A stretch of 64,000 nt of DNA from Flavobacteriales bacterium (GTDB taxonomy: Bacteria > Bacteroidota > Bacteroidia > Flavobacteriales_F > PHOS-HE28), in the NCBI GenBank assembly GCA_044347005.1, contig JBIIYD010000001.1, forward strand, positions 6,158-70,157, written 5' to 3'. The position numbers and the translations under genes were made by a program. The notes under the pieces were generated by a model that saw only the letters and a list, made by a program, of their open reading frames with translations, searched no databases and was not told where the DNA came from. Below, piece after piece: positions 2,645 to 56,216 of this stretch (its first letter is position 1; every line of letters starts with the position of its first letter).

Positions 2645-4522
2645 TTACTCCACCCGCTCCACCTTCTCCATCACATCCCCCACCTGTAACCGCCACACCA
2701 CGTCCATACCCTCCACCACCTCGCCGAAACGTGTGTAGCGACCATCCAGGTGCGGGGTGGCGCTGTGCGTGATGAAGAACTGGCAGCTCTCGGTATCCCT
2801 TCCGGCGGAAGCAAGGCCGATCGATCCCGCCGTGAACAGCTTGCGGCCGATCTCCGTGCGCAGGGTATAGGGCATGCCGCCATATCCATCGCCGCGCGGG
2901 CAACCACCCTGCACCACGAAGTTGGGCACCAGACGGTGGAAGGCCTTGCCGTTGTAGTAGCCTGCCGTTACGAGCGAATCGAAGGCGAGGCTGCTGCCTG
3001 GGCAGTCGTTGACATCGGTAGCGAGGATGACGGAGCCTTTAGTCGTGGTGATCCGGTAGCGCTGGCCCTGTGGAAGGGCTCGGAGCTTTTCCTTGTCGAT
3101 GGGGTGGTTGAAGGGTGGCGCTTGCTGGGTTGGCGGGGGAAGGCCATCGCGCTTTGCGGCCACGTTGGCCAGCAGGATCCGAGCCTCCAGATCACGAATG
3201 GGCAGAAGCGCGGACAAGGCCCAGGACTCCGTTTCCCGATCGAACAACAGACCGATGGCCTCGGGGTCTTCTTCCAAGAGCAGTTCGGCGGCGGCACAGA
3301 TCAGCCCTTCATCACGGGTGCGGATGGCACTGCGCACCACCTCGCCAAGTTGGCTGTACCGTGCCGCTGGATCGGCATAACGTGAACGCATCATGATCTC
3401 CCGAACGATGCGTACCGCACCTTGGAAGGCGGCCTGTTTCAGCGGAGCCGGTTCGCTGCTGCGCAGCACGAAGAGCAATCCCTGCAGCGTTTCGTCCCGC
3501 GGTGCCCGGGAGTAGGAACCGAGTACTTCGGCACGTTGGTAGGTCGAAAGTTTTCCGGCGACCAATCGCTCCATGGCCACGCCGGCCTTCCCAGCCATGT
3601 CTTCATCGCCGTGCTGCATGGCAAGACCAAGCAACGCGATCCGTGTGTTGGTGTCGGCCACTTGGGTTTCCCACCTCAGGCACCGGTCGGCATCCAGATC
3701 GGATCGTTGTTGAAGGAAGTCCATGGCGACCGTGGACATTGCAGGGTCGGACAGGGCGTGCAACAGCAGTTCCTGGTCGCTCACCGCATCCCAAGCAACA
3801 AGGACGCGCAACGCATTCACCCGCTCCGCGTATGCACCTGTCCCCAAGGCGATCGCACGCAACTCCGGTGTGTTCGCCAGTGGATCAAGGTGCTTCATGA
3901 TGAGCAGGAGCAGTGCACGCACTTCGGCGTCCCCGCTCCGCATCAGTTCTTGTAGTTCGGTGGTCCATCCGGCGAAGGTGGTGTCCGGCAAGCGCCGTAA
4001 CGCATCCGCAGCTCTTGCCCGGTCCTGCCCGCTGCTGCTTTGCAGGAAGTGGATGATGGCCTGCGGGTCCTTCAGCATCCCCTTGCGCTGCATGGCCAGG
4101 AAGGAAGCACTGAGGTAGGCGCGTTGCACAGTGCTGTCGCGTTCATTGATCGCCAATTCGGCCATGCGTTCGATGGTGAGGCTGTCCGCCACAAAGCCCA
4201 GCGCGAAGACAGCGGCTGCGCGCACATTCGCGGAGGTATCTCCCAACGCACCCATCAGACAAGGGATCCCCGAGGTGTCCTGCACACTGGCGAATGCAAG
4301 CGCTGCCGCATCGCGCACTTCTGATGCCTCGTGCTTCAGCAGCGCGCAGAGCGCATCGGTATCGCGGTGTTCCTGGGCCTCAAGTATGGGCCAAAGGCGT
4401 TCATCGGCCCAGCGGTTGGGTGGAGCTTCGGGTGTACCTGGTCCTGGAACCTCGCACGCTGCAAGGAATGCAAAACCCAATACGAGGATGATGTAGCGTA
4501 TCACCCCACGAAGATCATTCAT
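2645..4522 (-). CDS. HEAT/PBS-lyase repeat protein fused to a C-terminal cyclophilin-type peptidyl-prolyl isomerase domain
   Basis: 625 aa. Signal-peptide-like N-terminus and repeated helical HEAT-like units. The C-terminus carries FHRLVPNFVVQGGCP...GSIGLASAGRDTESCQFFITH, a cyclophilin signature. Confidence 0.75.
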   Translation of the reverse strand: MNDLRGVIRYIILVLGFAFLAACEVPGPGTPEAPPNRWADERLWPILEAQEHRDTDALCALLKHEASEVRDAAALAFASVQDTSGIPCLMGALGDTSANVRAAAVFALGFVADSLTIERMAELAINERDSTVQRAYLSASFLAMQRKGMLKDPQAIIHFLQSSSGQDRARAADALRRLPDTTFAGWTTELQELMRSGDAEVRALLLLIMKHLDPLANTPELRAIALGTGAYAERVNALRVLVAWDAVSDQELLLHALSDPAMSTVAMDFLQQRSDLDADRCLRWETQVADTNTRIALLGLAMQHGDEDMAGKAGVAMERLVAGKLSTYQRAEVLGSYSRAPRDETLQGLLFVLRSSEPAPLKQAAFQGAVRIVREIMMRSRYADPAARYSQLGEVVRSAIRTRDEGLICAAAELLLEEDPEAIGLLFDRETESWALSALLPIRDLEARILLANVAAKRDGLPPPTQQAPPFNHPIDKEKLRALPQGQRYRITTTKGSVILATDVNDCPGSSLAFDSLVTAGYYNGKAFHRLVPNFVVQGGCPRGDGYGGMPYTLRTEIGRKLFTAGSIGLASAGRDTESCQFFITHSATPHLDGRYTRFGEVVEGMDVVWRLQVGDVMEKVERVE

Positions 4523-4531
4523 TCATGCACT

Positions 4532-4609
4532 GTACCGTCGACCCATTGGGTCGACTTGCCTGACATTCATTGGTGGAATTCGAAAGTCGACCCAATGGGT
4601 CGACGGTAC
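4532..4609. repeat. REP-like element: perfect 24-nt inverted repeat (gtaccgtcgacccattgggtcgac / gtcgacccaatgggtcgacggtac) with ~30-nt spacer
   Basis: Read directly from the sequence. Intergenic, between the DUF1232 gene end and the HEAT gene start. Related copies at 6759-6824 and 38767-38815. Confidence 0.8.
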
Positions 4610-10647: not shown

Positions 10648-11667
10648 CTACGCCGCAAGTACGAAATCCACGCCCTCCACCAACCCGCGCCCCGCCAGGA
10701 AGCCCGCGATCCTATCTCCAGTACCCCGCTGACTGATGAAGCTCACCACGAAGGCCTCGCCAGCAGGCGGCAATTCCAAGTGTGGGATGAAGGAACGGCC
10801 CGGCACCCCGCTTCCCTTCACGTCGGTGTAAGCATGCACCGCGATGCCGTCCGCCTCCAACAGCGCCGCCCGCTGCTGACACAAGGCACTGGTGCCCGCG
10901 ATGATCATGGGACGGCCGTTCAACTTCCGATGCAACCACTTCGCGAGCCACTTCACCTTGGTGCTGAAAAAGGCATCCACGCTGTAGTTGGGGTGTGTGC
11001 GGCTTAGGCGATGCGCATGGTCGTTCCAGGTGAGCAGTTCCTCGGGCAGCTTCGCGAAACGCACTCCGGCTTCCATCCAACGCAACCAGAGTTCGTGGTC
11101 CTCGGGGAGCGGTCCTGTATCGTATCCGCCGTGTTGCTCCACCAGTTCGCGGCGGAACAGCACCGTGGGGTGCGCAAGGGGCGCGTCCACGAAGCGCTTC
11201 ACGTAGTGCTCGTGCGGGGAAAGGAGGTTGTTCTGCCACTGCACGAAGGCCTGCATGCCGCGGCTCTCTGGCACACTGCTGGCGAAGGCGGTGCGTGTGC
11301 CCAGCACGCCGATCTCCGGATGCGCGTCGAGGTAGGCCACTTGTTCCGCCAGGCGCTCCGCGTGACTGATGTCGTCGGCATCCATGCGGGCGATGTAGCG
11401 GCCTTGCGCACGGGCCACTCCCGTGTTCAGTGCGTGTGCGATGCCGATGCGGGGTTCGTGCAGGATGCGTATTCGTGGATCGCGCTCGGCCCAGCGTTGC
11501 GCGATAGTCGGACTTTCATCGGTGCGTGCCTGCACCGGGCTTGCCCCGGTGTTGTCGATCAGCAAGAGCTCCCATTCCGTGTAGGTCTGGGCGAACATGC
11601 TCGCGATGGCCGCATCCAGCGTCGCCGCGGCGTTGCGGAAGGGTAGCAGGATGGAGACCGGGAGCAT
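10648..11667 (-). CDS. Family 2 glycosyltransferase
   Basis: VSILLPFRNAAATLDAAIASMFAQTY...LLIDN...RMDADD (GT-A DxD). Confidence 0.75.
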   Translation of the reverse strand: MLPVSILLPFRNAAATLDAAIASMFAQTYTEWELLLIDNTGASPVQARTDESPTIAQRWAERDPRIRILHEPRIGIAHALNTGVARAQGRYIARMDADDISHAERLAEQVAYLDAHPEIGVLGTRTAFASSVPESRGMQAFVQWQNNLLSPHEHYVKRFVDAPLAHPTVLFRRELVEQHGGYDTGPLPEDHELWLRWMEAGVRFAKLPEELLTWNDHAHRLSRTHPNYSVDAFFSTKVKWLAKWLHRKLNGRPMIIAGTSALCQQRAALLEADGIAVHAYTDVKGSGVPGRSFIPHLELPPAGEAFVVSFISQRGTGDRIAGFLAGRGLVEGVDFVLAA

Positions 11668-11670
11668 GGT

Positions 11671-12189
11671 TCAGCGTTCCTTGAACAGCTTGGCCAATTC
11701 CTTGGCGGCCTCAGCGCGTTCCCGGGCACGACCCACGCGCAGCGCGTCCGACAAGGCGAGCATGGCATACAAGCGCGCGTCCTCCATGGCCGCTTCCGGC
11801 ACGCCGGGATACAGTGGCGCAATGGCCTGACCCTGTGCGTTGCCCTTTGCCGATGGCCAGACATAGGCATCATCGCTCAGGAAGCGTTCGCGCAACGCCG
11901 GTGCCGAGTGGGCCGTTGGCACGCCGCGCACCAGTCCGCCCGGCCGCACCGGGTACACATACGGCAACCCGTTCCGAAGGAAATCGAGCAGGGAAGCGCG
12001 CACCACTTTTCGTTTCGTGCCATCGAGCAGGCCGGCCAACACCGAGCGGGACAATGAATTGCTCACCTCGGCCGGACTCAAGCGAAGCGAGGCCGCCAAG
12101 TCCTTGGCAAGCCAGGGCTCCTTGCCCAAGGCCACGATCTTCAACAGCACCACCACATCCTGTGGCCGCATTTCTCCGGAAGTCTTCAT
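11671..12189 (-). CDS. Hypothetical protein, possibly winged-helix; operonic with the upstream GT2
   Basis: 172-aa ORF. Its start is adjacent to the GT2 stop. Confidence 0.4.
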   Translation of the reverse strand: MKTSGEMRPQDVVVLLKIVALGKEPWLAKDLAASLRLSPAEVSNSLSRSVLAGLLDGTKRKVVRASLLDFLRNGLPYVYPVRPGGLVRGVPTAHSAPALRERFLSDDAYVWPSAKGNAQGQAIAPLYPGVPEAAMEDARLYAMLALSDALRVGRARERAEAAKELAKLFKER

Positions 12190-12282
12190 GATTCACGATT
12201 CATGAATTGCAAATATAGTGCAGCCGCCTGTTTTCACGGAACATGCAATAACCCGACGCATTGCACGCATGATGCAACACCC

Positions 12283-13536
12283 TCACTCCCGCCCATACAC
12301 CACCAAACACTCCTTCGTCAGCGGCCACCACGGCAGTGCACGGTTCTCCTTCTTGAAGCCTTTCACCTGGCCGATGCAGGCCACCCAAGTGACGTCCAGC
12401 TCGGGTACGTGGTACATGTTCACGCCGAAGAAGCCGCTGTGGCCGATCATCGTAAGCGAGTCCAGGCCGGTGACACCCGAGGGTTTTGCATCGAAGCGGT
12501 ACACTTCGACGCCGAGCGCGTACTCGGGTGAATGGCGCGTAAGCATCGCGTCCAAGGTGGCCGGTTCGCGGAACAGTTCGCCCTTGGCCAGGCCGGTGAT
12601 GAAGCGCGCCAGATCCGCCGTGCTGGTGATGATGCCGCCGCCGCCGAACTCCACCGAGGGGTGCAGCTTGTCCGTTACACTGCGGCGACCGTGGTACTGG
12701 TGCATCATGTGGGTGTAGCTGCTGTCCCAACTGTCGGTCCAGGTGTCGCGCAGGCCCAGCGGCGTGCAGATGCGCTCCTGCAACTGCACGTTCAGGGAAG
12801 CGCCCCCCACCTGCTCCACCAACAAGGCCAGCAGCAGGTAACCCGTGTCCGTATAGTGGTAGCGGCTGCCCGGCACGGCTGTTTTGCGCTTGGCCATGCC
12901 ATGTCGCTCGTAAGCCCGCAGGATCTCGGTGGTGGTGTGCGCCTTGCTCGGCCGCAGTTGCGTGCGCAACAGGAAACGCCAGTCGTCGAAGATGTAGTCG
13001 CTGAGCCCGCCGGTATGCGCCAGCAGTTGCCGCACAGTAATGGTGTGGCCCAGGTCCTCGCCCTTCACCCGCACCAAGGGACGCACCAGCGCATCCGGCA
13101 GGTAGCGCACCACCGCACTGTCCAGACCGACGCGGCCTTCCTCCACCAGCTGCATCACCAGCACGGCCACGAAGGTCTTGGCCACGCTCGCCGTTTTGAA
13201 GCGGTATCCGGCAGGGTTGGTCGTATCCCGCCTGCTCACCTGGCCCAGCGCTCCATCGAAGCGGTAGTGCTGGCCGTAGCGGAAGTGGAACTGGAAGTTG
13301 TGCCGCTTGTGCCTGCCGGGTGGTTCCATCCAACTGGCCATTCGCTCCCAGGCCAGGGAGTCGAGGGCAGCGCGGTGGGCATCCTGGCCGTTTGCGGAAG
13401 GCAGCAGGAGGTGGAGCGCCAGCACCAGCAAGCAGCCCGCCCGGACCAGCCGGACACGCGGGCGGATGCACCAAGGTGGTGGGGGGGGCGAAGGGCCGAC
13501 CAGCATGGCAGCAAGATAGCCCAGCGCAGGCACCAT
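12283..13536 (-). CDS. Serine hydrolase of the beta-lactamase / penicillin-binding family
   Basis: SxxK motif ASVAKTF. Signal-peptide-like RVRLVRAGCLLVLALHLLLPSANG. The start could instead be 13506. Confidence 0.7.
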   Translation of the reverse strand: MVPALGYLAAMLVGPSPPPPPWCIRPRVRLVRAGCLLVLALHLLLPSANGQDAHRAALDSLAWERMASWMEPPGRHKRHNFQFHFRYGQHYRFDGALGQVSRRDTTNPAGYRFKTASVAKTFVAVLVMQLVEEGRVGLDSAVVRYLPDALVRPLVRVKGEDLGHTITVRQLLAHTGGLSDYIFDDWRFLLRTQLRPSKAHTTTEILRAYERHGMAKRKTAVPGSRYHYTDTGYLLLALLVEQVGGASLNVQLQERICTPLGLRDTWTDSWDSSYTHMMHQYHGRRSVTDKLHPSVEFGGGGIITSTADLARFITGLAKGELFREPATLDAMLTRHSPEYALGVEVYRFDAKPSGVTGLDSLTMIGHSGFFGVNMYHVPELDVTWVACIGQVKGFKKENRALPWWPLTKECLVVYGRE

Positions 13537-13667
13537 GCCCTGGACCGGGAAATCCTCGCGCACCAGACCGATGCGCCTGTCCCTTGCACGGATGTCGAAG
13601 AGGCAAGGCGACCACCGCCCGTGGGGCATGGAGTGCAGCACCGCATGCCACCCGTACTTTTGCGGCC

Positions 13668-14000
13668 ATGGCAAAAAAGGCTGCTCCTCCCTCCCCGATC
13701 ATTCCGTCCGCGTTGGAGTTGCACGACGAGGCCGAGAACCGCCAGTTCGTTACGCGGGTGGACGGCCTGCGCGCCACCGTGGAATACGACCGCGACGGGG
13801 AGCGGATCTTCCTCACCGGGCTCAACATCCCCAAAAGCCTGCAGCCCTTGGGCCTCGGCGATGCCCTGCTGGAAAGGGTGCTCACCCATGTGGAAGAGCA
13901 GAAGTGGAGGCTCATTCCCACCCACCCGGCCATCAAGGACTACCTGCGCACCCACACGGCTTGGCAGCGGTTGTTGTTGAAGGGGGTGCAGTTGCGGTGA
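13668..14000 (+). CDS. Small GNAT-fold acetyltransferase (YjdJ-like, GNAT_2 type)
   Basis: 110 aa, MAKKAAPPSPIIPSALELHDEAENRQFV...DGERIFLTGLNIPKSLQPLGLGDALLERVLTHV. Confidence 0.6.
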   Translation: MAKKAAPPSPIIPSALELHDEAENRQFVTRVDGLRATVEYDRDGERIFLTGLNIPKSLQPLGLGDALLERVLTHVEEQKWRLIPTHPAIKDYLRTHTAWQRLLLKGVQLR

Positions 14001-14024
14001 GGGGGCGCTGAGGCAGGGACTCGA

Positions 14025-15002
14025 ATGCCTGTCGCCGACCCGCCTGCTATCTTCCGCCTCATGTCAGCGGCTTCGCTTCCCGACTACCTGCGCCTCAAGC
14101 AAGGTGGCGGCAACGCGCCGCATAAGCCGATCATGCTGCTGGCCGTGCTTCGTGCCTTCGACGAAGGACTGATCATCGAGAACCGCATCGAACCTTCCGC
14201 TGAGCTGATCAATCTCTTCAATGGCTACTGGCAAGCGCTGGTGCCAACCGAAAGGCCTCAAGGCCGCTTCCATTATCCCTTCTTCTACCTAAAGAACGAA
14301 CGCTCCGGCCTGTGGACACTGCACACCCTGCCCGGGTTTGAACGTGCGCTTACACGTGGCCGCGACATCAAAAGCCTTGGCGCCCTCACCAATTTCGAGG
14401 CCTATGCCACTCTGCGCGATGATGTGTACCAACGGTGGCTCAACCCTGAATATCGCGTCGCCGCTCGTCTTGCACTAATGGCCCACTATTTCAATGGCCA
14501 GGCTCTGCCGCTCACTCTGACCGACCACCTGCGCGAGATCGAACAGCAGATCGTACACGACAGCCCTGAGACATACAAGGCCCGACAGCACCAGCTGATC
14601 CAGGTCGAAGAGGAGGAAGAACAGATCCTGCGAGGTGCCGCTTTCAAACGCAAGATCCCCGAGCTCTACGAGTACCGCTGCGCCATCACCGGACTACGGG
14701 TCCAGAACCGACGAGCCGTCAACCTCATCGATGCCTGCCACATCGTACCCTGGGCCGATTCCTTCGACGATACCATCAGCAACGGCATCGCGCTCTGCCC
14801 CAACATGCACCGCGCCTTCGACCGTGGGCTCATCAGCATCGCCGCTGACCACTCGGTACTGGTGGCCCCGGACCTCCTGGAAAGCGCGAGCAGCCATGCC
14901 ATCCGCCCCTTCGCAGGCAAGCGCCTGATGTTGCCCAACGAGAAACGCCATTGGCCCGCACCGGAGAATCTGGCTCGGCATCGGGAGCGGTGGGGGTACT
15001 AA
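14025..15002 (+). CDS. HNH_2-family endonuclease with a ~200-aa N-terminal accessory domain (restriction-endonuclease-like)
   Basis: C-terminal HNH module YRCAITGLRV...NLIDACHIVPW...NGIALCPNMHRAFDRGLISI (HNH_2 pattern). The N-terminal domain (HKPIMLLAVL...FHYPFFYLKN...WTLH) is of the kind seen in modification-dependent restriction enzymes. Confidence 0.75.
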   Translation: MPVADPPAIFRLMSAASLPDYLRLKQGGGNAPHKPIMLLAVLRAFDEGLIIENRIEPSAELINLFNGYWQALVPTERPQGRFHYPFFYLKNERSGLWTLHTLPGFERALTRGRDIKSLGALTNFEAYATLRDDVYQRWLNPEYRVAARLALMAHYFNGQALPLTLTDHLREIEQQIVHDSPETYKARQHQLIQVEEEEEQILRGAAFKRKIPELYEYRCAITGLRVQNRRAVNLIDACHIVPWADSFDDTISNGIALCPNMHRAFDRGLISIAADHSVLVAPDLLESASSHAIRPFAGKRLMLPNEKRHWPAPENLARHRERWGY

Positions 15003-15044
15003 CCAACTATTCGCGATCAAACGATCACATTTGCGAGATACAAG

Positions 15045-16976
15045 ATGCGAAGCACCCCAGGAGCAATAGATGGAGAAGGATTTGGCTGGGCAGGTAACTT
15101 CCCTGTATTGAAAGGTGCCACACTTAGCGAAGTTGTAAACGCGCTCATGAGCTTTGTGCGAGACGCTACTCCAGAGCAGATCCGTGCGTGGAACAGTTCC
15201 ATCCCTTTAGTACAGATCGAAGCGGGTAAGGTGCTCGATATTCAACCTTCTTCGAAAGAGTATGGCGCAGTGTTCGAGTACACGATGCCATACAGCCAAA
15301 GGAGGGTTGATGTGATCCTGCTTATCTCAGGGGCAGTTCTTGTTGTGGAACTGAAAGGGGACAGTAATACACGACAAGGTGACATCGAACAGATGGCAGA
15401 CTATGCCCGTGGGCTATATACGAATCATACTCTTTGCGGAGAAGACGGAGTTCGTGTACATGCACTTCTGGTGTCATACGGTATGCCAAGTGCGGAACGC
15501 AAAGAAGAGTGGTACACGCTGACCAACATAGACAAGCTGCATGAAGAGGTCATGCGGTTCGACCAACCAGAGAGAGCTTCGCCAATACCCCTTGATCGTT
15601 TTCTGCACCAAGAAAATCACCAACCTCCTCCTTCGCTGGTCCAAGCTGTTAGGGCGTACTTCTCTAAACAAGAATTGCCTAGGATCAAGCGCATTGATGA
15701 TGTCACTGGCGATGCGTTGAAGTCCGTGATAAGCGAGATACGTGAGACTCATTCAGCCAAACGGCGCAAGCTGATCCTTGTGAGCGGAGTACCCGGGGCT
15801 GGCAAGACCTACGTTGGACTCCAGATCGCACACGAGCATTTCCTCGATGACCTCTCGGAGGTAATGGAGAGCGGGTCGAAGCCATCCGCCCCTGCTGTAT
15901 TCCTCTCCGGTAACAAGCCGCTCGTGGACGTTCTTCAATACGAGATGCGAAGAGCCGGTGGTGATGGAAAAGTTTTCGTGCAGAATGTGAAAGACTTTGT
16001 GAAGCGCTACTCGACCAAGAAGGCGGTTGTCCCACCTCACCACGTTCTGATCTTTGATGAGGCTCAGCGTGCGTGGGATGCCAAGCGTGTTAAGGCGAAG
16101 CATGATGATGTGCATGCCGTTTCCGAACCTGAGTCATTCATCCGATTCGCCAGTCGTATTCCTGCGTGGTCCGCTGTTATCGGATTGATCGGCGAAGGGC
16201 AACAGATCTACACCGGTGAAGAAGGGGGAATGGACCTTTGGGCTGAGGCTATTCAGAACGGGGGTGAACAGTGGGATGTAGTCGGCCCGCCTCAATTCCA
16301 ATCCATATTTCGATCACGGGGTTTAGCGTACACACCTATTGCTCCTTTACACCTTGCGCGTTCCGTTCGTTTCCATTTCGCTCATGGCCTTAGTGAATGG
16401 TCAGGGGGAGTGGTCGATGGTCACCTAAGTACAGGAGAACTATCCCTTATGGTCGACCACCTTTGGCAGCAGGGGTACCAGATCCGCATTACGCGCAACC
16501 TACATAAGGCTAAAGAGTTTCTTTGGGAGAAGTACCGACTACAGCCGGACGCTCGCTACGGGATGCTCACCGGTGGACGCGACAAGGGTCTGCAAGATCT
16601 TGACTTGAACAAAGTGAACACGCGAACATTCCGTGCAGGTCCGTGGTACGCTGACCCCGAAAGTTCTCCCAGTTCATGCAGGCGCCTCACAGATGCGATC
16701 ACGGAATTCTCCGCACAAGGCCTTGAGCTGGATCATGCACTCTTGGTCTGGGGAACCGACTTGATCCGCAAAGCAGGGGTATGGGATGATGCACTCGCAA
16801 TGCGCTATCTCCGCAAAGGCGATGTGGCTGATCCACTCCAGCTTAGATTGAATGCTTATCGGGTCTTGCTAACACGTGGACGTGAAGGTGTGCTGATCTG
16901 TATCCCCCAACAGATAGCCGAATTGGACGAGACATTCGACTTCCTCATGGCAGCCGGATGTCGTCCGTTGGAGTGA
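15045..16976 (+). CDS. NERD/PD-(D/E)xK nuclease fused to a DUF2075 (Schlafen group-3-like SF1) P-loop ATPase/helicase
   Basis: N-terminal RRVDVILLISGAVLVVELKG (D...ExK). Walker A VSGVPGAGKTYVG. DEAQ box VLIFDEAQRAW. Noticeably lower GC than the flanks. Confidence 0.8.
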   Translation: MRSTPGAIDGEGFGWAGNFPVLKGATLSEVVNALMSFVRDATPEQIRAWNSSIPLVQIEAGKVLDIQPSSKEYGAVFEYTMPYSQRRVDVILLISGAVLVVELKGDSNTRQGDIEQMADYARGLYTNHTLCGEDGVRVHALLVSYGMPSAERKEEWYTLTNIDKLHEEVMRFDQPERASPIPLDRFLHQENHQPPPSLVQAVRAYFSKQELPRIKRIDDVTGDALKSVISEIRETHSAKRRKLILVSGVPGAGKTYVGLQIAHEHFLDDLSEVMESGSKPSAPAVFLSGNKPLVDVLQYEMRRAGGDGKVFVQNVKDFVKRYSTKKAVVPPHHVLIFDEAQRAWDAKRVKAKHDDVHAVSEPESFIRFASRIPAWSAVIGLIGEGQQIYTGEEGGMDLWAEAIQNGGEQWDVVGPPQFQSIFRSRGLAYTPIAPLHLARSVRFHFAHGLSEWSGGVVDGHLSTGELSLMVDHLWQQGYQIRITRNLHKAKEFLWEKYRLQPDARYGMLTGGRDKGLQDLDLNKVNTRTFRAGPWYADPESSPSSCRRLTDAITEFSAQGLELDHALLVWGTDLIRKAGVWDDALAMRYLRKGDVADPLQLRLNAYRVLLTRGREGVLICIPQQIAELDETFDFLMAAGCRPLE

Positions 16977-17036
16977 GCCGATCTGGTCAGTCAACATTCC
17001 CTGGCATTTTCGGTCAAGGTTCCGTACCCTGGTCGA

Positions 17037-17285
17037 ATGCTTACCGACAAGGAATACGTCATTCGCCTCAACAGCTTCGATCTGGGGCAACTCATCGATG
17101 GCTTGGAGGTTCGTGCCCGTGCGTGGCGCGATACGGCAACCTACCTGCACACCGGCGAAGTACCAAGCGCGGACTTCGTGATGGAGGAGTGCCGTGATGC
17201 GGAGGAAGCTGAGCGGCTGGCCGAGCACTATGAGCGGATCAGGGATCTCATTCACCTGCAACAGAAGGAGCAGGACCGGGCATGA
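17037..17285 (+). CDS. Hypothetical small acidic protein (orfA), co-directional with the DUF2075 gene
   Basis: 82-aa ORF 60 nt after the upstream stop. Its stop overlaps the next start (ATGA). Confidence 0.4.
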   Translation: MLTDKEYVIRLNSFDLGQLIDGLEVRARAWRDTATYLHTGEVPSADFVMEECRDAEEAERLAEHYERIRDLIHLQQKEQDRA

Positions 17286-17629
17286 ATCCGCGCTATCGGC
17301 GGGAACTGGTCCGGTTGGGCTTTACCATCCCCGAGGAGGCTACCTACGTTGTCCATTGCATGTGGCGGCCACCCAAGGGCCAATGGCCTGCGCTGGGTGC
17401 TCGTCCGCGACCTGTATGGGTGCAGCTCAACGACACCGGAGACCATCGATCGGCTGCGATCGAGGCTTGCTTGTTCTTGATCGCACAGCATCGCGGGAAG
17501 GCGACAGCTTTATCGGTAATGGCCGACAACTGCCATCCCCAGATCATCAACGACGTGTGTTTCGACTGGAACTGGTATGACGGGGTGGTCACGTTCGGGG
17601 CTGAGGTGGTGGAAGTAATATGGTCATGA
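17282..17629 (+). CDS. Hypothetical small protein (orfB), translationally coupled to orfA
   Basis: 115-aa ORF. ATGA overlap with orfA. Confidence 0.4.
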   Translation: MNPRYRRELVRLGFTIPEEATYVVHCMWRPPKGQWPALGARPRPVWVQLNDTGDHRSAAIEACLFLIAQHRGKATALSVMADNCHPQIINDVCFDWNWYDGVVTFGAEVVEVIWS

Positions 17630-17822
17630 CCGCGAGTTCGCGCGAGCGATCGCAGCGGAAAGCCCACAGCCGACTGAGGCACGAGGGCGGCGAGGACTTT
17701 CCTACGGCAAGCAGGCTTGCAGCTAATAGCCTGACCGCCGTCAGGCAGGCACCCAAGCCCCCCTTCACGATCCTTAACGCCCCACCGCACCCACCCGCGC
17801 CCAAAGCCCGCTATGTTCGGGC

Positions 17823-19022
17823 ATGCCAATGCGCTACCTGCTGCCTGCGCTGCTCTTGTGGGCCTGTACCAACGGAGGCGCGGCACGTCCGCAAGAGGCG
17901 GAGGCCACGGCGCCCACGGAGCGCTACCGGCTGGAGGCGGCGGACCTACGCGTTTGGCGCACGGTGGATACCACGGAGGCAGAAGCCCGGGCGGATTTGG
18001 CCTGCCTGCGGCGCTTCTTCGTGAACAAGCTGGACAGCGGCGCAGCGCAGGACTTCTGGTGGCGGCCGGATGTGGAGCTCTACGTGCGGCCCTATGAGGA
18101 CCTGCTGTACACCGAGTACGACAGCGAGGCGCGCCTGCGCTACCTGCCCACGCTGATGGAGCGGCGCCCGTTGCCCGATGGCACCCGGCTGCTGCGCGTG
18201 AAGTGGGCCGCCCCGGACAGCACGGGCAGGGCGGAGGAGGTTCGGCAGGTCTTCGACTTCCTTGCGCGCGACACGCCCGAGGGCACGCGCCTGGCGATGC
18301 CGCTGGCGTGGAACACCGCCACATGGCCGCGGCACCAGGTGGGACCGATCGGCTACATCGTGTCCCCCGAGCGGCGTTTCGACCCTGCCGTGGCCCGTGC
18401 GCAGGAGCAGGACGTGGAGGCGCTGGGGCGCTTCTTCGGCATCTCGCCCTTCCCCCTTACGTACTACAGCTTCAAGGACCCGGCGGACCTGTTCCGGGCG
18501 CGGGGCTTCCTGGTACACCCGGCGATGTACGCGCACGCCACGGGCGGTCGGCTGGACCATGGTGGGCAGGTGTACGCGGGCAACAACAGCGAACGCTACA
18601 CCCACGAGATCGTACACGCCTTCATTTTCCGCAGCCTGGGCCGCAAGGGCATGGACCTGCTGCACGAAGGACTGGCCACCTGGCTGGGTGGCAGCAACGA
18701 GCACCCCTATGCCTGGCACCGCGCACAACTGCAGCGCATGCTGGCCGAGCAACCCGACCGTGACCTGCGACAGGACCTGAACGTGTACAACAGCGACTAT
18801 TACGCGGACGAGACCAACGTGGCCTACACCATTGGCGCCTTGGTGGTGGAGCACATCCTGCGCACGGCGGGTAAGGAGGCCCTCTTCGCGCTCTTCGCCG
18901 AGGAACACACGGACCTGAGCGCCTTGGAACAGCACGGCATCCGCGAGGTGGAGATCAATGGGTGGGTGCGGGCGGCGCTGGCGAAGGAGGCGTTGCGATC
19001 AGATGATCAGAAAATGAGATGA
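17823..19022 (+). CDS. Putative secreted/lipoprotein zinc metallopeptidase-like protein (HExxH)
   Basis: Signal peptide LLPALLLWACTNG. HEIVH motif (YTHEIVHAF). Confidence 0.55.
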   Translation: MPMRYLLPALLLWACTNGGAARPQEAEATAPTERYRLEAADLRVWRTVDTTEAEARADLACLRRFFVNKLDSGAAQDFWWRPDVELYVRPYEDLLYTEYDSEARLRYLPTLMERRPLPDGTRLLRVKWAAPDSTGRAEEVRQVFDFLARDTPEGTRLAMPLAWNTATWPRHQVGPIGYIVSPERRFDPAVARAQEQDVEALGRFFGISPFPLTYYSFKDPADLFRARGFLVHPAMYAHATGGRLDHGGQVYAGNNSERYTHEIVHAFIFRSLGRKGMDLLHEGLATWLGGSNEHPYAWHRAQLQRMLAEQPDRDLRQDLNVYNSDYYADETNVAYTIGALVVEHILRTAGKEALFALFAEEHTDLSALEQHGIREVEINGWVRAALAKEALRSDDQKMR

Positions 19023-19131
19023 TCAGAAAATGGCGCTGGGCGATGCAGTGCCTGTAGGCTACGCACCACCCCCGACCGAAGCGCGCATTCGATCTTCTGA
19101 TCATCTGATCATCTCATTTTCTGATCCTCTC
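18997..19131. repeat. ~130-bp imperfect inverted repeat built from GATCAGATGATCAGAAAATGAGATGATCAG units
   Basis: Left arm gatcagatgatcagaaaatgagatgatcagaaaatg. Right arm cattcgatcttctgatcatctgatcatctcattttctgatc. Directly precedes the PIN toxin gene. Confidence 0.75.
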
Positions 19132-19143
19132 AGGATCGCCCCC

Positions 19144-19587
19144 CTACCGCTTCCTTTTCACCAACCTCAGCGCCTGCTTCGCGCTCAGCCGTTTTACGCC
19201 GATGTGGCCGTCGTAGTCGGGGTCGCGGCTTACGATGGCGTCGAGGGTTCCGGCGGAAACCACGGCCCAGTATTGGGCGCCGTCCTCCAGGTCACCGAAA
19301 GTGCTACCCGCGCTCTGCAGGAAGTGGTTCGCATCCAAGGGCACCAGCTCCACACAGGCCAACAGATCTTCAAGGGTGCGACGGACGTGCTCGCGCAGGA
19401 GGCCCTTCTTAGCTGCATCCTTGCGCTGCAGGTGGTAAAGCACAATGCCGATACTGAGGGAGGTGGTGAGCAACTTCACTTGCCGTTGTTCCCCCAGGGC
19501 CAATAGAAGCAGCGCCTCCTCGGGGTCATGCGGGCGTTCGAGGATGGCATCCAGCAAGATGTTGGCGTCCACGAAGAGCCGCATCAT
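19144..19587 (-). CDS. vapC: PIN-domain toxin (VapC-like)
   Basis: MMRLFVDANILLDAIL. PIN acidic residues. ATGA overlap with the upstream antitoxin. Confidence 0.8.
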   Translation of the reverse strand: MMRLFVDANILLDAILERPHDPEEALLLLALGEQRQVKLLTTSLSIGIVLYHLQRKDAAKKGLLREHVRRTLEDLLACVELVPLDANHFLQSAGSTFGDLEDGAQYWAVVSAGTLDAIVSRDPDYDGHIGVKRLSAKQALRLVKRKR

Positions 19588-19874
19588 GCGCGGTCCTGTT
19601 TTTCGCGCTTACGGCGCTCGTAGGCCTTGGTCTTGCGCAATTCCGCACCGCCGCGGTCATCGGCCTCGAAGTCGGCTTCGGTGACATGCTTGGCCCAGAA
19701 CCCACGCCATTTCAGGATGTTAGCCTCACTTTCTCCTTCTGGGGTGGGTTGTTCGTCGCTCTTGTCGGCAAGGTTCTCCACCAGTTCGCTGATGCTCTTG
19801 CCTTTGCGAGCGCTGGCCTTGCGGAGCATGGCCACCTTGCGCCGGTCGATGCTGAGGGTGAGCTTGGTCTTCAT
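19584..19874 (-). CDS. Type II antitoxin partner of the PIN toxin (copy 1)
   Basis: 96 aa, basic N-terminus MKTKLTLSIDRRKVAMLRKASARKGKSISELV. Overlaps the toxin start. Confidence 0.7.
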   Translation of the reverse strand: MKTKLTLSIDRRKVAMLRKASARKGKSISELVENLADKSDEQPTPEGESEANILKWRGFWAKHVTEADFEADDRGGAELRKTKAYERRKREKQDRA

Positions 19875-19946
19875 GCATTGTCCGCCGAAGCTTTAGCGTA
19901 GGCGGGGGTATTGCGAAGTTACGTGTCCGGTGATACGTATACTGGA

Positions 19947-20279
19947 TCAGATCAGGGATCTGGGATCTTTCCGTTCGCTTGGGAATTGGGCGGGGTGCTT
20001 ACCACTGGCCTTCTGCATTCGCTCGTAGGCCTTGGTCTTCCGCAATTCGGCGCCGGCCCGGTCATCGGCCTCGAAATCGGCTTCGGTGACATGCTTGGCC
20101 CAGAATCCACGCCACTTGAGGATGTTGTGCTCGCCTTCTCCTTCTGGGGTGGGTTGCTCTTCACTCTTGTCGGCGAGGTTCTCCACCACATCGCTGATGC
20201 TCTTGCCTTTACGCGCGCTGGCCTTGCGCAGCATGGCCACCTTGCGCCGGTCGATACTGAGGGCGAGCTTGGTCTTCAT
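19947..20279 (-). CDS. Orphan tandem duplicate of the antitoxin (copy 2); divergent C-terminus, no cognate toxin
   Basis: Near-identical to copy 1 up to ...RKTKAYER. It then reads through into GATC-repeat sequence where copy 1 overlaps the PIN start. Confidence 0.6.
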   Translation of the reverse strand: MKTKLALSIDRRKVAMLRKASARKGKSISDVVENLADKSEEQPTPEGEGEHNILKWRGFWAKHVTEADFEADDRAGAELRKTKAYERMQKASGKHPAQFPSERKDPRSLI

Positions 20280-20432
20280 GCATTGTCCGCCGAAGCTTGT
20301 GCGTAGGCGGGGTATCACGAAGATACGTGTGCGGTGATACGTACGCAGATCTGATCATCCCATTTCTGATCGGAGCATCTATATCGGGTAACGGGTCCGC
20401 TACCGTAGCTTTGGTTTCCATTGCAGTAACCG

Positions 20433-20669
20433 ATGAGCACCGACAGCATGCGCATGGAATTGATCCGCTGGCTGAGCCAGTTGGATGACAAGGGGCTGCT
20501 TGCTTCCCTGCTCCACTTCAAGCAGGCCAACGAGTCCCATGACTGGTACGACAGCCTGACCGCTGAGCAACAAGCTGCCATTGCCGAGGGCGAAGCGGAC
20601 ATCAAGGCTGGTCGCGTGCGTTCTTCCGCGGAAGTGTGGGAAAAGTATGGCCGCACTCCGAAGAGTTGA
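20433..20669 (+). CDS. Type II antitoxin (ParD/RelB-like, addiction-module component)
   Basis: 78 aa. Overlaps the downstream ParE/RelE gene. An alternative start is at 20454. Confidence 0.65.
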   Translation: MSTDSMRMELIRWLSQLDDKGLLASLLHFKQANESHDWYDSLTAEQQAAIAEGEADIKAGRVRSSAEVWEKYGRTPKS

Positions 20670-20940
20670 GTGGTCCGCCCGAGCGGAACGCGACTTGGAC
20701 CGGCTTTACGCCTTCGGGCTGGAGCGCTGGACCAAACGCGAGGCCGACCATTTGCTGGATATGGTGCAGGAGTTCGAAGCACTGATCGCGCGTTGGCCGA
20801 ACGGCTTCAAGCGTTCGCAACGCAACAAGCATCATCGGCTGGGCTTCGTTCACCGCAACACATCGGCGGTGTACCGCGTGTATCGCGACCGGGTGGTGAT
20901 CGTGACCATGTTCGACAATCGCGCCGATACCGCGTGGTGA
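20647..20940 (+). CDS. parE: ParE/RelE-family toxin
   Basis: MAALRRVEWSARAERDLDRLYAFGLERW...VYRVYRDRVVIVTMFDNR, the typical ParE/RelE fold pattern. Confidence 0.75.
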   Translation: MAALRRVEWSARAERDLDRLYAFGLERWTKREADHLLDMVQEFEALIARWPNGFKRSQRNKHHRLGFVHRNTSAVYRVYRDRVVIVTMFDNRADTAW

Positions 20941-20972
20941 AGAGTCCGATCATCTGATCGGCCTCGCGTCGG

Positions 20973-22775
20973 CTACTCCCCGCTCGCAAGCCCCCTCATC
21001 ACCACCTCCGCCTTTTTCGCGCCCACCTCGGCCACCACATCCTCGGGCATGGCTTCGCGGATGCCTTTGATGCTGCCAAAGCGTTTGAGGAGTTTCTGGG
21101 CGGTACCGGGGCCGATGCCGGGGATCTCCTCCAGGCCGGTGCGCACGATGCGTTTGCTGCGTTTGCCACGATGGTGCGTGATGCCGAAGCGGTGCGCCTC
21201 GTTGCGCATGTGTTGGATGACCTTGAGGCTGCTGCTGCGCTTGTCGATGTGCAGCGGGTACGGATCGCCGGGGAAGTAGATCTCCTCCAGCTTCTTGGCG
21301 ATGCCGATGATGGCGATCTTGCCGCGTAGACCGAGCCGGTCCAGCGCTTCGAGGGCGGCACTGAGCTGGCCCTTGCCACCATCGATGACGATGAGCTGGG
21401 GCAATGGTTCGCCTTCGGTGACGAGCCTGCTGTAGCGGCGCTCCACGGCCTCGGTCATGCTGGCGAAATCGTCCGGCCCTTCCACCGTGCGGATGTTGAA
21501 GTGGCGGTAGTCCTTCTTGCTGGGCTTGGCGTCCTTGAACACCACGCAGGCGCTCACGGGGTCCGTGCCCTGGGTGTTGCTGTTGTCGAAGCACTCGATG
21601 TGGCGCGGCAATTCGTTGAGGCGCAGGTCCTGCTTGAGTTGCTCGAGCGTGCGCGTGGTGGCACCCTCGGGGTCGGTGAGCTTCTCCTGCTTCTGCTTGT
21701 CCAGCATGAAGTAGCGCACGTTGCGTTCGCAAAGTTCCAGGAGTTTCAGCTTGTCGCCGCGTTGGGGCACGGTGAAGCTGAGGCCGGGCACCTCGATCTC
21801 GGGGTCGAAGGGCACGATGGCCTCGGGTGCGAGGCTGTGGTAGCGGGTGCGCAGTTCGGCGATGGCGAGTTGCAGCATCTCCACATCGCTTTCCTCCAGG
21901 CGGCGCTTCAGTTCGATGGTGATGCCATGCACCACGGCGCCGTCGATCACGCGCATGTAGTTGACGTAGGTGCTGGCGGGGTCGCTCACCAGGCCGTAGA
22001 TGTCCACGTCGCCGATGTCGGGGTTCACCACGATGCTCTTGCTGTGGTAGCTCTCCAGCCGGTCGATCTTCTGGCGGTATTCCTCGGCGGCCTCGAACTC
22101 GAGCTTTTCCGCGTGGGCGTGCATCAGGGGCTTCATCACCTTCAGCAGGCCGCTCACACGCCCCTTCACGATCTCGCGCACCTGCACCATGTTGGTGGTG
22201 TACTCGGCTTCGTCCTGCAGGCCTTCGCAAGGGCCTTTGCAGTTGCCGATGTGGTACTCCAGGCAGCGTTTGAACTTCTTCTGCTCGATGTTCTTGGGCG
22301 AGAGATCGTAGTTGCAGGTGCGCAGTTTGTAAAGCTTGTGTACCAGGCCCAGCACGGTCTTCATGGTGCGCACGCTGGCGTATGGGCCGAAGTATTCGCT
22401 GCCGTCGTGCTCCGGGTTTCGCATGCCTTCCACGCGGGGAAAACGTTCGTTGCGGATGCGGATGAAGGGGAAGCTCTTGTCGTCGCGCAGCAGGATGTTG
22501 TAGCGCGGCTGGTGCTCCTTGATCAGCGAGTTCTCCAGCAGCAGCGCCTCGAATTCGGTGGGCACATGGATGACGCGCAGGTCCACGATCTTGCGGACGA
22601 GCAGGCGTGTCTTGCCGTCGAAGTGTTCCTTGGCGAAATAGCTGCCCACGCGGTTGCGCAGGTCCTTGGCCTTGCCCACGTAGAGGATGACACCTTCGGC
22701 ATCGAAGAACTGGTACACGCCGGGTGTGTGCGGCAACAGGCGGACCTTTTCGCGGACGTCGAGGGGGGAGGACAC
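20973..22775 (-). CDS. uvrC: Excinuclease ABC subunit C
   Basis: GIY-YIG N-terminus HTPGVYQFFDAEGVILYVGKAKDLRNRV. UvrC homology region. C-terminal HhH. Confidence 0.95.
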   Translation of the reverse strand: MSSPLDVREKVRLLPHTPGVYQFFDAEGVILYVGKAKDLRNRVGSYFAKEHFDGKTRLLVRKIVDLRVIHVPTEFEALLLENSLIKEHQPRYNILLRDDKSFPFIRIRNERFPRVEGMRNPEHDGSEYFGPYASVRTMKTVLGLVHKLYKLRTCNYDLSPKNIEQKKFKRCLEYHIGNCKGPCEGLQDEAEYTTNMVQVREIVKGRVSGLLKVMKPLMHAHAEKLEFEAAEEYRQKIDRLESYHSKSIVVNPDIGDVDIYGLVSDPASTYVNYMRVIDGAVVHGITIELKRRLEESDVEMLQLAIAELRTRYHSLAPEAIVPFDPEIEVPGLSFTVPQRGDKLKLLELCERNVRYFMLDKQKQEKLTDPEGATTRTLEQLKQDLRLNELPRHIECFDNSNTQGTDPVSACVVFKDAKPSKKDYRHFNIRTVEGPDDFASMTEAVERRYSRLVTEGEPLPQLIVIDGGKGQLSAALEALDRLGLRGKIAIIGIAKKLEEIYFPGDPYPLHIDKRSSSLKVIQHMRNEAHRFGITHHRGKRSKRIVRTGLEEIPGIGPGTAQKLLKRFGSIKGIREAMPEDVVAEVGAKKAEVVMRGLASGE

Positions 22776-22835: not shown

Positions 22836-22970
22836 GAGTGGCGAGTGGCGAGTGCTCGGCCCGATGGGCCATCGCAGCGAGTGGCGAGTAAATGCCCCTT
22901 ACCGGCGCTTATCGCCTGGGGCATTTACTCGCTACTCGCCCACTCGTCACTCGCCACTCTCTCCCCTACC
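22836..22970. repeat. ~135-nt imperfect palindrome composed of CGAGTGG / CCACTCG heptamer repeats with a central hairpin
   Basis: gagtggcgagtggcgagtg...gcgagtggcgagtaaatgcccc | ttaccggcgcttatcgcct | ggggcatttactcgctactcgcccactcgtcactcgccactc. Lies in the divergent uvrC-lpxD promoter region. Confidence 0.75.
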
Positions 22971-22991
22971 TTGGCGCCATACTTCCCACCC

Positions 22992-24011
22992 ATGCAATTC
23001 ACCGCTACCCAGATCGCGCAACTCCTCCATGGCACCGTGGAAGGCGATCCCAACGCAACCGTAAACAAGCTCTCGAAGATCGAGGAGGGTGGCGAAGGCT
23101 CCCTGTCCTTCCTCGCCAACCCCGCTTACACGCAGTACGTGTACGGGACCACCGCCAGCGTGGTGATCATCGGGCAGGCCTTCGAACTGACGGCCCCGGT
23201 GAAGACCACCTTGGTGCGCGTGGCCGATGCTCAGGGCGCTTTCGCGAAGGTGCTGGCCATGTACAACACCATCAAACTGGACAAGAAGGGCATCTCGCCC
23301 CAAGCGGTCATTGAGGACAGTGCGACCTACGGGAAGGACTGCTACATCGGCGCGTTGGCCTACATCGGTGCGAATGCGAAGCTGGGCAACAATGTGAAGA
23401 TCTACCCACACGCCTATATCGGTGACAACGTGACCATCGGCGACAACACCACCGTGTTCGCCAACGTGACGATCTATTCGGATTGTGTGGTGGGCGCCAA
23501 CTGCATCATCCACAGCGGCACGGTGATCGGCAGCGATGGCTTCCGCTTTGCCACAGGCCCCAATGCAGCGGAGAAGATCCCGCAGATCGGCAACGTGGTG
23601 ATCGAGGACGATGTGGAGATCGGTGCCAACTGCGCCATCGATCGCGCCACGCTCGGCAGCACCATCCTGCGGCGTGGTGTCAAGTTCGATAACCTGATCC
23701 ACATCGCACACAACGTGGAGGTGGGCGAGAACACCTACTACGCGGCAGGCGGCGTGGTGGCCGGCAGCACCAAGATCGGGAAGAACTGCATGTTCAGCGG
23801 GCAGGTGGGCATCATCGGTCACCTGAAGATCGCCGATGGTACCATCATCGCGGCGCAGAGCGGGATCAGCAAGGACACCAAGCCCGGCGAGGCTTACATG
23901 GGTTCGCCAGCATGGGAGGCCAGCAAGTACCGCAAGAGCTACATCCACTTCCGCAACCTGGACCGCATCGTGGATCGGTTGGACAAGCTGGAGAAGAGCG
24001 TGAAGGGCTGA
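22992..24011 (+). CDS. lpxD: UDP-3-O-acylglucosamine N-acyltransferase
   Basis: Left-handed beta-helix hexapeptide repeats and LpxD N-terminal domain (MQFTATQIAQLLHGTVEGD). Confidence 0.9.
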   Translation: MQFTATQIAQLLHGTVEGDPNATVNKLSKIEEGGEGSLSFLANPAYTQYVYGTTASVVIIGQAFELTAPVKTTLVRVADAQGAFAKVLAMYNTIKLDKKGISPQAVIEDSATYGKDCYIGALAYIGANAKLGNNVKIYPHAYIGDNVTIGDNTTVFANVTIYSDCVVGANCIIHSGTVIGSDGFRFATGPNAAEKIPQIGNVVIEDDVEIGANCAIDRATLGSTILRRGVKFDNLIHIAHNVEVGENTYYAAGGVVAGSTKIGKNCMFSGQVGIIGHLKIADGTIIAAQSGISKDTKPGEAYMGSPAWEASKYRKSYIHFRNLDRIVDRLDKLEKSVKG

Positions 24012-55806: not shown

Positions 55807-56216
55807 TGGACCTTGTTCATACGCGCCTTGATGATGATGCTTGCAAGGATGTTCCGGATGCTCTGTAGGTCCTCCAGCATTCCTTCCTCATAAGGAAGCT
55901 CATCCGCGTACTTGCATAGTTTTAGCCAGAACCGTGTTTCGCTGGCTTCCTTGGCGGAGACCTTCATCTTGTGGATGAAGTCATCGCGACTCTCCGCATC
56001 CTGGGCCTCATGCACATTGGCTCCGATGGATGTGCCGCATTTGAAGAGTTGCCGCGAAGCATCATACCAGCCCGAATCACGCAAGCCTTTGCTGAAGCGG
56101 ACCACACGTAGTGCGAATTCAAAACTCTTGTCAACGATCAAATTGCCAGTGGTCCGGTCAAAACCATATTCCGCAGGTCCTTCTTGAAATTCCCAAGTAT
56201 CCTGGTTGTTGTCCAT
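55803..56216 (-). CDS. Four-helix-bundle protein (TIGR02436 / '23S rRNA intervening-sequence protein', Avd-like family)
   Basis: FEFALRVVRFSKGL...CGTSIGANVHEAQDAES...SAKEASETRFWL matches the family pattern. Confidence 0.75.
   Translation of the reverse strand: MDNNQDTWEFQEGPAEYGFDRTTGNLIVDKSFEFALRVVRFSKGLRDSGWYDASRQLFKCGTSIGANVHEAQDAESRDDFIHKMKVSAKEASETRFWLKLCKYADELPYEEGMLEDLQSIRNILASIIIKARMNKVQ

Follow-up and report, generated by a model that had tools for sequence, protein, structure and literature searches.

The window analysed here is a stretch of 64,000 nucleotides from a Flavobacteriales bacterium (GenBank assembly GCA_044347005.1, contig JBIIYD010000001.1, positions 6,158 to 70,157 of the forward strand). 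At 18997-20965 it contains a toxin-antitoxin (TA) islet in which three modules are packed into 2 kb: a vapBC pair (PIN toxin and DUF6364 antitoxin), an orphan second copy of vapB, and a parDE pair (Table 1). The modules are separated by motifs containing GATCAGA. These motifs are the arms of a hairpin-forming intergenic repeat, which has been named H in this analysis. The islet is the uvrC-proximal end of a variable TA/defence island, which occupies a long-standing insertion hotspot between uvrC and a GT2 glycosyltransferase gene. Loci from other genomes that were used for comparison are referred to by L numbers.

Toxin-antitoxin modules of the islet

Judged by their domains, antitoxin-first order, overlapping frames and small size, the modules are ordinary type II TA systems, and in all of these respects they resemble the known VapBC and ParDE families. 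The sole oddity is the orphan antitoxin, which has no toxin. An earlier note on this DNA had placed three TA modules within ~2 kb, and this is borne out by the Pfam matches and the overlapping gene pairs. Homologues of vapC with 60-96% identity occur in Flavobacteriales metagenomes, and the 30 homologues of parE bear the NCBI names RelE/ParE. The pairing of vapB with vapC is conserved in L017, L062, L151 and L153-L155, and that of parD with parE in 11 loci of relatives (range L140-L156). PADLOC gave no match to the TA proteins.

The two vapB genes belong to a duplication of 325 nt that includes the promoter (19615-19939 and 20020-20343, 89-91% identical). In vapB2 the N-terminal DUF6364 part is intact and the C-terminus has been replaced: the open reading frame (ORF) runs into a relic of the repeat, site A, which gives it the tail ...DPRSLI*. 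The gene is not present in the close relative L151, so that the orphan antitoxin is polymorphic at the strain or species level. Upstream of every vapB homologue examined is a pair of TACGTATC-like boxes placed ~15 nt apart (window 19905-19939 and 20309-20343; L017 1557-1585; L062 11838-11862). The boxes are kept with or without GATCAGA arms nearby (L062, L017, L151, L153, L154, L155), and the pair is probably a VapB (DUF6364) operator, a role assigned from sequence.

A tRNA scan found no tRNA and the island is therefore not tRNA-linked. Rfam at gathering thresholds returned nothing in the whole window; a permissive search of the region gave sub-threshold matches to plant miRNA hairpins only, which were taken as chance.

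Table 1. Features of the islet, of its repeats and of the surrounding island, with the arm-flanked gene of four relatives in the last row (window positions unless an L number is given)
Feature	Position	Strand	Remarks
vapC, PIN_3 toxin, 147 aa	19144-19587	-	PF13470, E 7.4e-07
vapB, DUF6364 antitoxin, 96 aa	19584-19874	-	PF19891, E 5.1e-09; stop overlaps vapC start by 4 nt
Orphan vapB2, DUF6364, 110 aa	19947-20279	-	E 1.1e-06; no toxin gene behind it
parD-like antitoxin, 78 aa	20433-20669	+	Sub-threshold RelB/ParD match, E 0.0099; overlaps parE
parE, RelE/ParE-family toxin, 97 aa	20647/20653-20940	+	PF05016 ParE_toxin, E 8.2e-06, above Pfam cut-off
vapB promoter region, two ACGTA-core boxes	19905-19939	-	TACGTATC ... 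CACGTAAC on the gene strand; 89% identical to 20309-20343
Complete H copy	18997-19137		Left arm 18997-19034, loop ~55 nt, right arm 19088-19131/19137
Site A, degenerate arm relic	19945-19967	-	GATCAGATCAGGGATCTGGGATC; below profile threshold, recognised by position and by comparison with L017
Site B, arm core variant	20346-20373	-	Reverse complement GATCAGAAATGGGATGATCAGATC; between the vapB2 and parD promoters
Site D, outermost 12-16 nt of an arm	20945-20960	-	CCGATCATCTGATCGG; then conserved 13-nt spacer and uvrC stop codon
uvrC	20973-22775	-	Insertion hotspot at its 3' end
Rest of the variable island between uvrC and GT2	11671-19022		399-aa protein, two small ORFs, helicase, HNH endonuclease, acetyltransferase, beta-lactamase-family protein, 172-aa ORF
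HNH_2 endonuclease	14025-15002		Low-GC segment
PDC-S41 Schlafen-type (Schlafen-group-3) helicase	15045-16976		PADLOC candidate defence family PDC-S41, E 1.7e-104
23S_rRNA_IVP (four-helix-bundle) gene in a conserved operon, arm-flanked	L011 366-821; L053 3287-3748; L037 1912-2358; L032 3279-3737		Gene absent in L016

The hairpin repeat H and its dispersal

H consists of two inverted arms flanking a variable loop. Within each arm, 8-mers (GATCAGAN) are arrayed around a core of 23 nt, GATCAGAAAATGAGATGATCAGA, and this core is common to both arms of the inverted repeat in the window and to the site at 20349-20371. The imperfect inverted repeat that the earlier note had seen at 18997-19131 is real: it spans 135 bp, with arms of 27-35 nt that are 80-96% complementary, and folds with an energy of -73/-82 kcal/mol (z -7.7/-8.5). 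Its loop is homologous to the H loops of L146, L017 and L152.

The repeat is concentrated at the islet. The sequence GATCAGATGATC, with at most 1 mismatch, has 4 copies in the 64 kb, all in the islet, where 0.23 were expected and 4 were reached in none of 100 shuffles. Similarly, 10 of the 13 GATCAGA heptamers in the window fall within 18997-20960, which is 3% of the sequence and was expected to hold 0.4. Within the window, matches to the arm profile described below are restricted to 18997-19034, 19088-19131, 20349-20373 and 20945-20959. The proposal that one repeat motif stands at all module boundaries holds, with corrected positions: the third motif is at 20346-20373 and not at 20338-20366, and the copy at 19945-19967 (site A) is degenerate. 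By position, site A corresponds to the right arm found ahead of the vapB promoter in L017, L154 and L155. Site B is placed where L140 and L155 have H or an H relic, upstream of parD. Site D with its spacer is the same junction as the uvrC-H junction of L017, L146 and L155. In addition, CTGATCGG is found on either side of parDE.

The arms also reach into neighbouring reading frames. The 399-aa ORF at 17823-19022 terminates in the left arm of H with the tail RSDDQKMR*. An identical arm-encoded tail is carried by an LpxD-like acyltransferase in L031 (1-366), which is unrelated to the 399-aa protein; the LpxD-like orthologue in the window (22845-24011) has a different C-terminal end and no element behind it. 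Loop ORFs in L028 (4645-4700) and L022 (109-160) take their start from an ATG in the A-rich motif on the inner side of the arm, GATCAGAAAATGG, and an arm may supply such ORFs with a leader and a start codon. The same ATG in the H of the window (19030) opens an ORF antisense to vapC, which is probably spurious.

The stability of the hairpin and its placement between convergent gene ends are what would be expected if the GATCAGA motifs were regulatory, as operators of TA autoregulation, transcription terminators or RNA-stabilising hairpins, and sites A and B do lie upstream of the vapB copies and of parD. However, the vapB promoter retains its conserved TACGTATC boxes in relatives that lack arms, arms stand beside unrelated genes at 5' and 3' ends alike, and a promoter and terminator scan found nothing at the repeats and no T-run after the H stem. 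A primarily regulatory role is very unlikely on these grounds, and H may have a secondary effect on transcription or translation.

The distribution of H was determined by scanning one genome per bacterial species for the exact core pattern (22-23 nt). The exact core was found in 56 stretches, nearly all of them from high-GC metagenome-assembled genomes (MAGs) of Flavobacteriales/Bacteroidota, many from activated sludge, with at most 6 exact cores per genome. Three matches were discounted (L024, a cyanobacterium; L040, with 37% GC; and L030, from a bin labelled Proteobacteria), being regarded as chance hits, contamination or simple repeats unrelated to H. An arm profile was then built from 61 arms, and its consensus is conserved over ~40 nt. 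It recovers 141 arms in 459 kb of core-bearing stretches, with plus and minus arms usually 20-100 nt apart, and H-bearing genomes hold about one further element per 43 kb. No arm was found in 1.1 Mb of uvrC loci from 80 other Flavobacteriales metagenome contigs, and the arm core had no match in viral contigs. The H family is lineage-restricted.

Within this lineage H is an element of intergenic space. By a crude GC3-based gene caller, 66 of 68 elements are intergenic and lie no more than a few nucleotides from the adjoining gene ends (39 co-directional, 13 convergent, 7 divergent). The top strand of the arm has TGA in all three frames, and 29 adjoining ORFs terminate within an arm. The 87 H-flanking proteins are mostly housekeeping, such as peptide deformylase, a release factor, orotidine monophosphate decarboxylase, rhodanese, epimerases, enoyl-CoA hydratase and RuvX, and in many genomes copies of H lie next to prfA, pyrF, def, ruvX, enoyl-CoA hydratase and rhodanese-operon genes. 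No TA family is among the 25 commonest families of H-flanking proteins. Homologues of the islet's TA genes do occur near arms in L017, L030, L033, L047 and L051; given how few these are and how uncertain the null model is, enrichment of arms near TA genes is not claimed. Change is seen at the prfA-pyrF junction, which is filled by an H of 125-160 nt in L004 and L056 and is empty in L019, where the two genes overlap by ATGA. This shows that H is gained or lost as a unit. With its dispersed copies and its filled and empty prfA-pyrF sites, the repeat behaves like a miniature inverted-repeat transposable element (MITE); the earlier note had named MITE-mediated shuffling as one possible analogy.

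A second and unrelated short hairpin repeat, GTCACTGCGGCCTTGAGCCGCAGTCGC, follows a GATCAGA arm at three loci of MAG JASGIM01 (L005 ~2040-2070, L014 ~1560-1600, L025 ~2330-2360). It may represent a family like the repetitive extragenic palindromic (REP) elements that co-locates with H.

The same distribution bears on the likeness to an integron that had been proposed for the islet, in which each repeat would be an attC site of a cluster lacking its own integrase (CALIN) and the integrase would be encoded elsewhere. Chromosomal integrons commonly contain TA cassettes. Like them, the islet is compact, and its small modules, TA pairs among them, have their own promoters and are set apart by a recurring imperfect palindrome; moreover, the 135-bp palindrome is within the size range of attC and forms a hairpin. 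The resemblance does not extend to the sequence of the sites. An attC core search of both strands over 18900-21100 found only two GTTRRRY/RYYYAAC sites (20480 and 20665 on the plus strand), both inside parD/parE, and no R''/R' pair (RYYYAAC and GTTRRRY) at any repeat. The arms are 8-mer arrays unlike attC, module orientations are mixed, and the repeat is not cassette-specific but lies between housekeeping genes in many genomes. No integrase, transposase or recombinase Pfam family is annotated among the genes within ~10 kb on an identical metagenome contig. An integron origin is thus extremely unlikely.

The uvrC-GT2 hotspot and its duplicated junctions

Relatives with 73-88% identical UvrC share the backbone lpxD-uvrC-variable segment-GT2. 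The gap between uvrC and GT2 is empty in L067 and L075, where it measures 24-47 nt. A DUF3667-like gene fills the gap of L065, L068 and L074, and other relatives have other TA genes in it: PemK/MazF in L064, PIN_3 with an MNT nucleotidyltransferase in L069, and PIN in L072. L062 carries a vapBC of 63% identity together with a ParE pair. H arms are absent from the gap loci L062, L064, L065, L067-L069, L072, L074 and L075. Turnover of modules among relatives, which the earlier note had anticipated, is evident from these gaps and from the lack of the orphan vapB in L151. Of the two findings that the note had named as speaking against its cassette reading, one was made, in that the repeat is dispersed genome-wide in relatives; the other was not, as the locus differs among them.

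In the window the gap is 9.3 kb long, with the GT2 gene at 10648-11667. The segment 14025-16976 has a GC content of 49-55%, against 61% for the window, and its HNH endonuclease and Schlafen-type helicase have the look of a defence pair that the uvrC-GT2 island gained by horizontal transfer.

How H relates to the hotspot is seen in relatives that belong to the H family. In L017, L146 and L155, H lies directly after the uvrC stop codon with a conserved spacer of 13-15 nt between them. The order in L017 is simple, namely uvrC-H-vapBC. L155 agrees with the window in gene order and reads uvrC-spacer-H1-parE-parD-(22-nt uvrC 3' relic-spacer-H2)-vapBC. Here, H2 is orthologous to the H of L017, loop included, and parDE is bracketed by a duplicated junction of ~100 nt that runs from the uvrC end through the spacer into the first part of H. 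H likewise follows vapC in L152, and arms are present on both sides of vapBC in L154. Two further features of L155 were observed. H2 contains a small palindromic insert, CCCCGATACGTATCGGGG, at ~3437-3455, the centre of which equals a vapB operator-like box, GATACGTATC. In addition, another TA pair (DUF2281 antitoxin and PIN toxin; L155 1-556) lies 5' of uvrC, so that this gene is TA-flanked on both sides.

Relics of the uvrC 3' end lie beside TA modules in L146 (27 aa), L140, L062 and L153 (54 aa, E 1e-25). In L153 (3484-3645 and ~4500-4545) and L062 (12637-12691), uvrC 3' fragments occur on both sides of vapBC, and no intact uvrC is near in L153. The relics in L062 and L153 indicate that the duplication concerns uvrC itself and that H is not needed for it. 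The flanking fragments suggest that vapBC moves together with uvrC 3' homology or is integrated by means of it. A stretch of 30 nt with 70% similarity between the 3' ends of vapC and uvrC was considered as a relic and dismissed, because this part of VapC is conserved among VapC homologues.

Arms are also dispensable for the modules themselves. In L151 (ParE 95%, VapC 87%) the order is vapC-vapB, 135 nt, parD-parE-uvrC; arm matches are lacking, as are an orphan vapB and an H beyond vapC. As these modules occur without arms, the arms are not integral module ends. For this reason, and because TA genes turn over at uvrC without the repeat, a role of the repeat as a recombination site specific to cassettes is not supported.

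Origin of the islet and its relation to known elements

The explanation that we favour, as the probable one, is that a TA islet of ordinary type was assembled in the uvrC hotspot and that copies and relics of H, an element of MITE/REPIN type, were left between the modules by serial insertion and duplication. The islet would then consist of vapBC, a decayed second vapBC of which the antitoxin alone remains, and parDE. In this lineage one H copy would have been resident directly after the uvrC stop codon, and new DNA would have entered repeatedly at the uvrC 3' end, each insertion duplicating or displacing the junction made up of the uvrC 3' end, the spacer and H. Recombination from arm to arm, together with local deletions, could have made the second vapBC and removed its toxin gene. 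H copies would have been trimmed to the relics A, B and D, with one full copy (18997-19137) kept. The mode of insertion may have been site-specific integration of an element that later decayed, or recombination facilitated by homology and anchored in uvrC, and H itself would be moved by an enzyme acting in trans.

Several points weigh against this account. All five arm matches of the 64-kb window cluster at the TA islet. Neither tblastn nor blastn-short found a uvrC 3' relic above noise within the island of the window, and the order of events proposed for it is therefore reconstructed from relatives. The mobility of H is inferred solely from filled versus empty sites: there is no consistent target-site duplication at the prfA-pyrF junctions, where the ends of the element are themselves GATC/TGA-rich, and no transposase, RAYT (REP-associated tyrosine transposase) or integrase was found among the genes annotated within ~10 kb. 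The gene calls in relatives come from our own crude GC3-based caller. Finally, small genes lie between arms in L047, L022, L028 and L011/L032/L037/L053, and the arms may act in gene capture beyond hitch-hiking.

This last point leads to a different reading, in which the arms would capture small gene cargo, serving as active ends for recombination or transposition. Units of arm, cargo and arm would be non-autonomous transposons mobilised in trans, of the kind known as mobile insertion cassettes (MICs) or Tn3-derived inverted-repeat miniature elements (TIMEs), and the islet would be a nest of them. In L047 inverted arms enclose a parDE homologue, vapBC is arm-flanked on both sides in L154, and CTGATCGG stands on both sides of parDE in the window. 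Three comparisons point the same way: an 85-aa ORF (ORF85) fills the loop in L022, versus a loop of 20 nt at the orthologous site of L038; a 160-aa ORF (ORF160), which takes its ATG from the inner AAAATGG of the arm, is enclosed by arms in L028, compared with a solo arm in L054; and the 23S_rRNA_IVP gene has arms on its flanks in four species (L011, L032, L037, L053), compared with a single arm in L016. A homologue of this last gene is present in the window at 55833-56183 on the minus strand, 46% identical and with no arm match near it. However, the cargo boundaries vary in their placement with respect to the arms, these vapBC and parDE modules are armless in L151, L062, L153 and L140, and the majority of arms stand beside housekeeping genes. 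An identical cargo unit at two non-orthologous loci was not seen, no transposase was identified in the 8-kb stretches around exact-core matches or in the ~10 kb around the islet, and direct repeats of 8-9 nt are to be expected inside 8-mer arrays. Cargo capture by the arms is, on balance, unlikely, but of the alternatives it is the one that retains appreciable weight.

The comparison with mobile insertion cassettes and with mosaic non-autonomous transposons of the TIME type (PMC4133298, PMC5444012) is similarly divided. The likeness is that inverted H arms bracket parDE, small ORFs and 23S_rRNA_IVP in a few relatives. The differences are that no cargo unit is repeated at different loci, that no known transposase family is tied to H arms, and that the modules in the window are not each enclosed by an inverted pair of arms.

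Known MITEs and intergenic hairpin repeats include Correia/NEMIS in Neisseria, ERIC in enterobacteria and BOX/RUP in pneumococci. H resembles elements of this type in being ~80-300 bp, non-coding and bounded by inverted terminal arms, with many dispersed intergenic copies and with filled and empty orthologous sites, and in overlapping gene ends and supplying stop codons. It differs in its arms, which are variable-length arrays of the 8-mer GATCAGAN around a 23-nt core, and in its loop, which ranges from ~20 nt to >600 nt and occasionally contains an ORF. A further difference is that neither a target-site duplication (prfA-pyrF) nor a cognate, arm-bounded transposase (8-kb stretches around exact-core matches) was found.

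REP elements and the doublets called REPINs (REP doublets forming hairpins) are mobilised by RAYT transposases (PMC3116915, PMC3337134, PMC3733652). Each REP unit is a palindrome of 20-40 bp with the tetranucleotide GTAG or CGTC at one end (PMC3733652). As in REPINs, H has two inverted units and a spacer that form an extragenic hairpin, is present in tens of copies per genome, persists at orthologous sites across species and has solo units that appear to be decay products. Unlike REP units, the arm of H is an 8-mer array and not a palindrome, and its ends lack a conserved GTAG or CGTC tetranucleotide.

At the level of the locus, the islet resembles islands that are integrated at the 3' end of a conserved gene and duplicate the target end. 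As in these, variable TA, restriction-type and helicase genes accumulate at one conserved junction, and in the relatives L155, L146, L153, L062 and L140 modules are flanked by direct, partial copies of the uvrC 3' end; at the islet of the window the junction retains the arm relic D and the spacer, and no uvrC relic was found. The differences from such islands are that uvrC, and not a tRNA or tmRNA gene, is the target, that no integrase remains, and that the inserts are as small as one TA operon.

What appeared to be an integron-like cassette array is thus explained as a lineage-specific hairpin family, MITE/REPIN-like, in a TA/defence hotspot. A literature search for the motif, for REP/REPIN repeats of Bacteroidetes and for uvrC hotspots returned nothing specific, and no description of the H family was found in the literature searched. 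For annotators, H is a recurring intergenic element in MAGs of wastewater Flavobacteriales that truncates ORFs and adds tails such as RSDDQKMR*. The uvrC-GT2 interval is flagged as a variable locus. The genes found between arms and the duplicated uvrC-end junctions provide a testable lead on the tandem build-up of single TA operons. A more speculative proposal, to which we give little weight at present, is that the uvrC 3' end with its octamer-array hairpin is a reusable docking site at which single TA operons and other mini-genes are inserted serially, each bringing along or re-creating a copy of the junction. More generally, the H arms may define a family of cargo-capturing, non-autonomous elements in Flavobacteriales with loops that take up small genes. 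If true, docking and cargo capture of this kind would be a mechanism of cassette accretion distinct from that of integrons.

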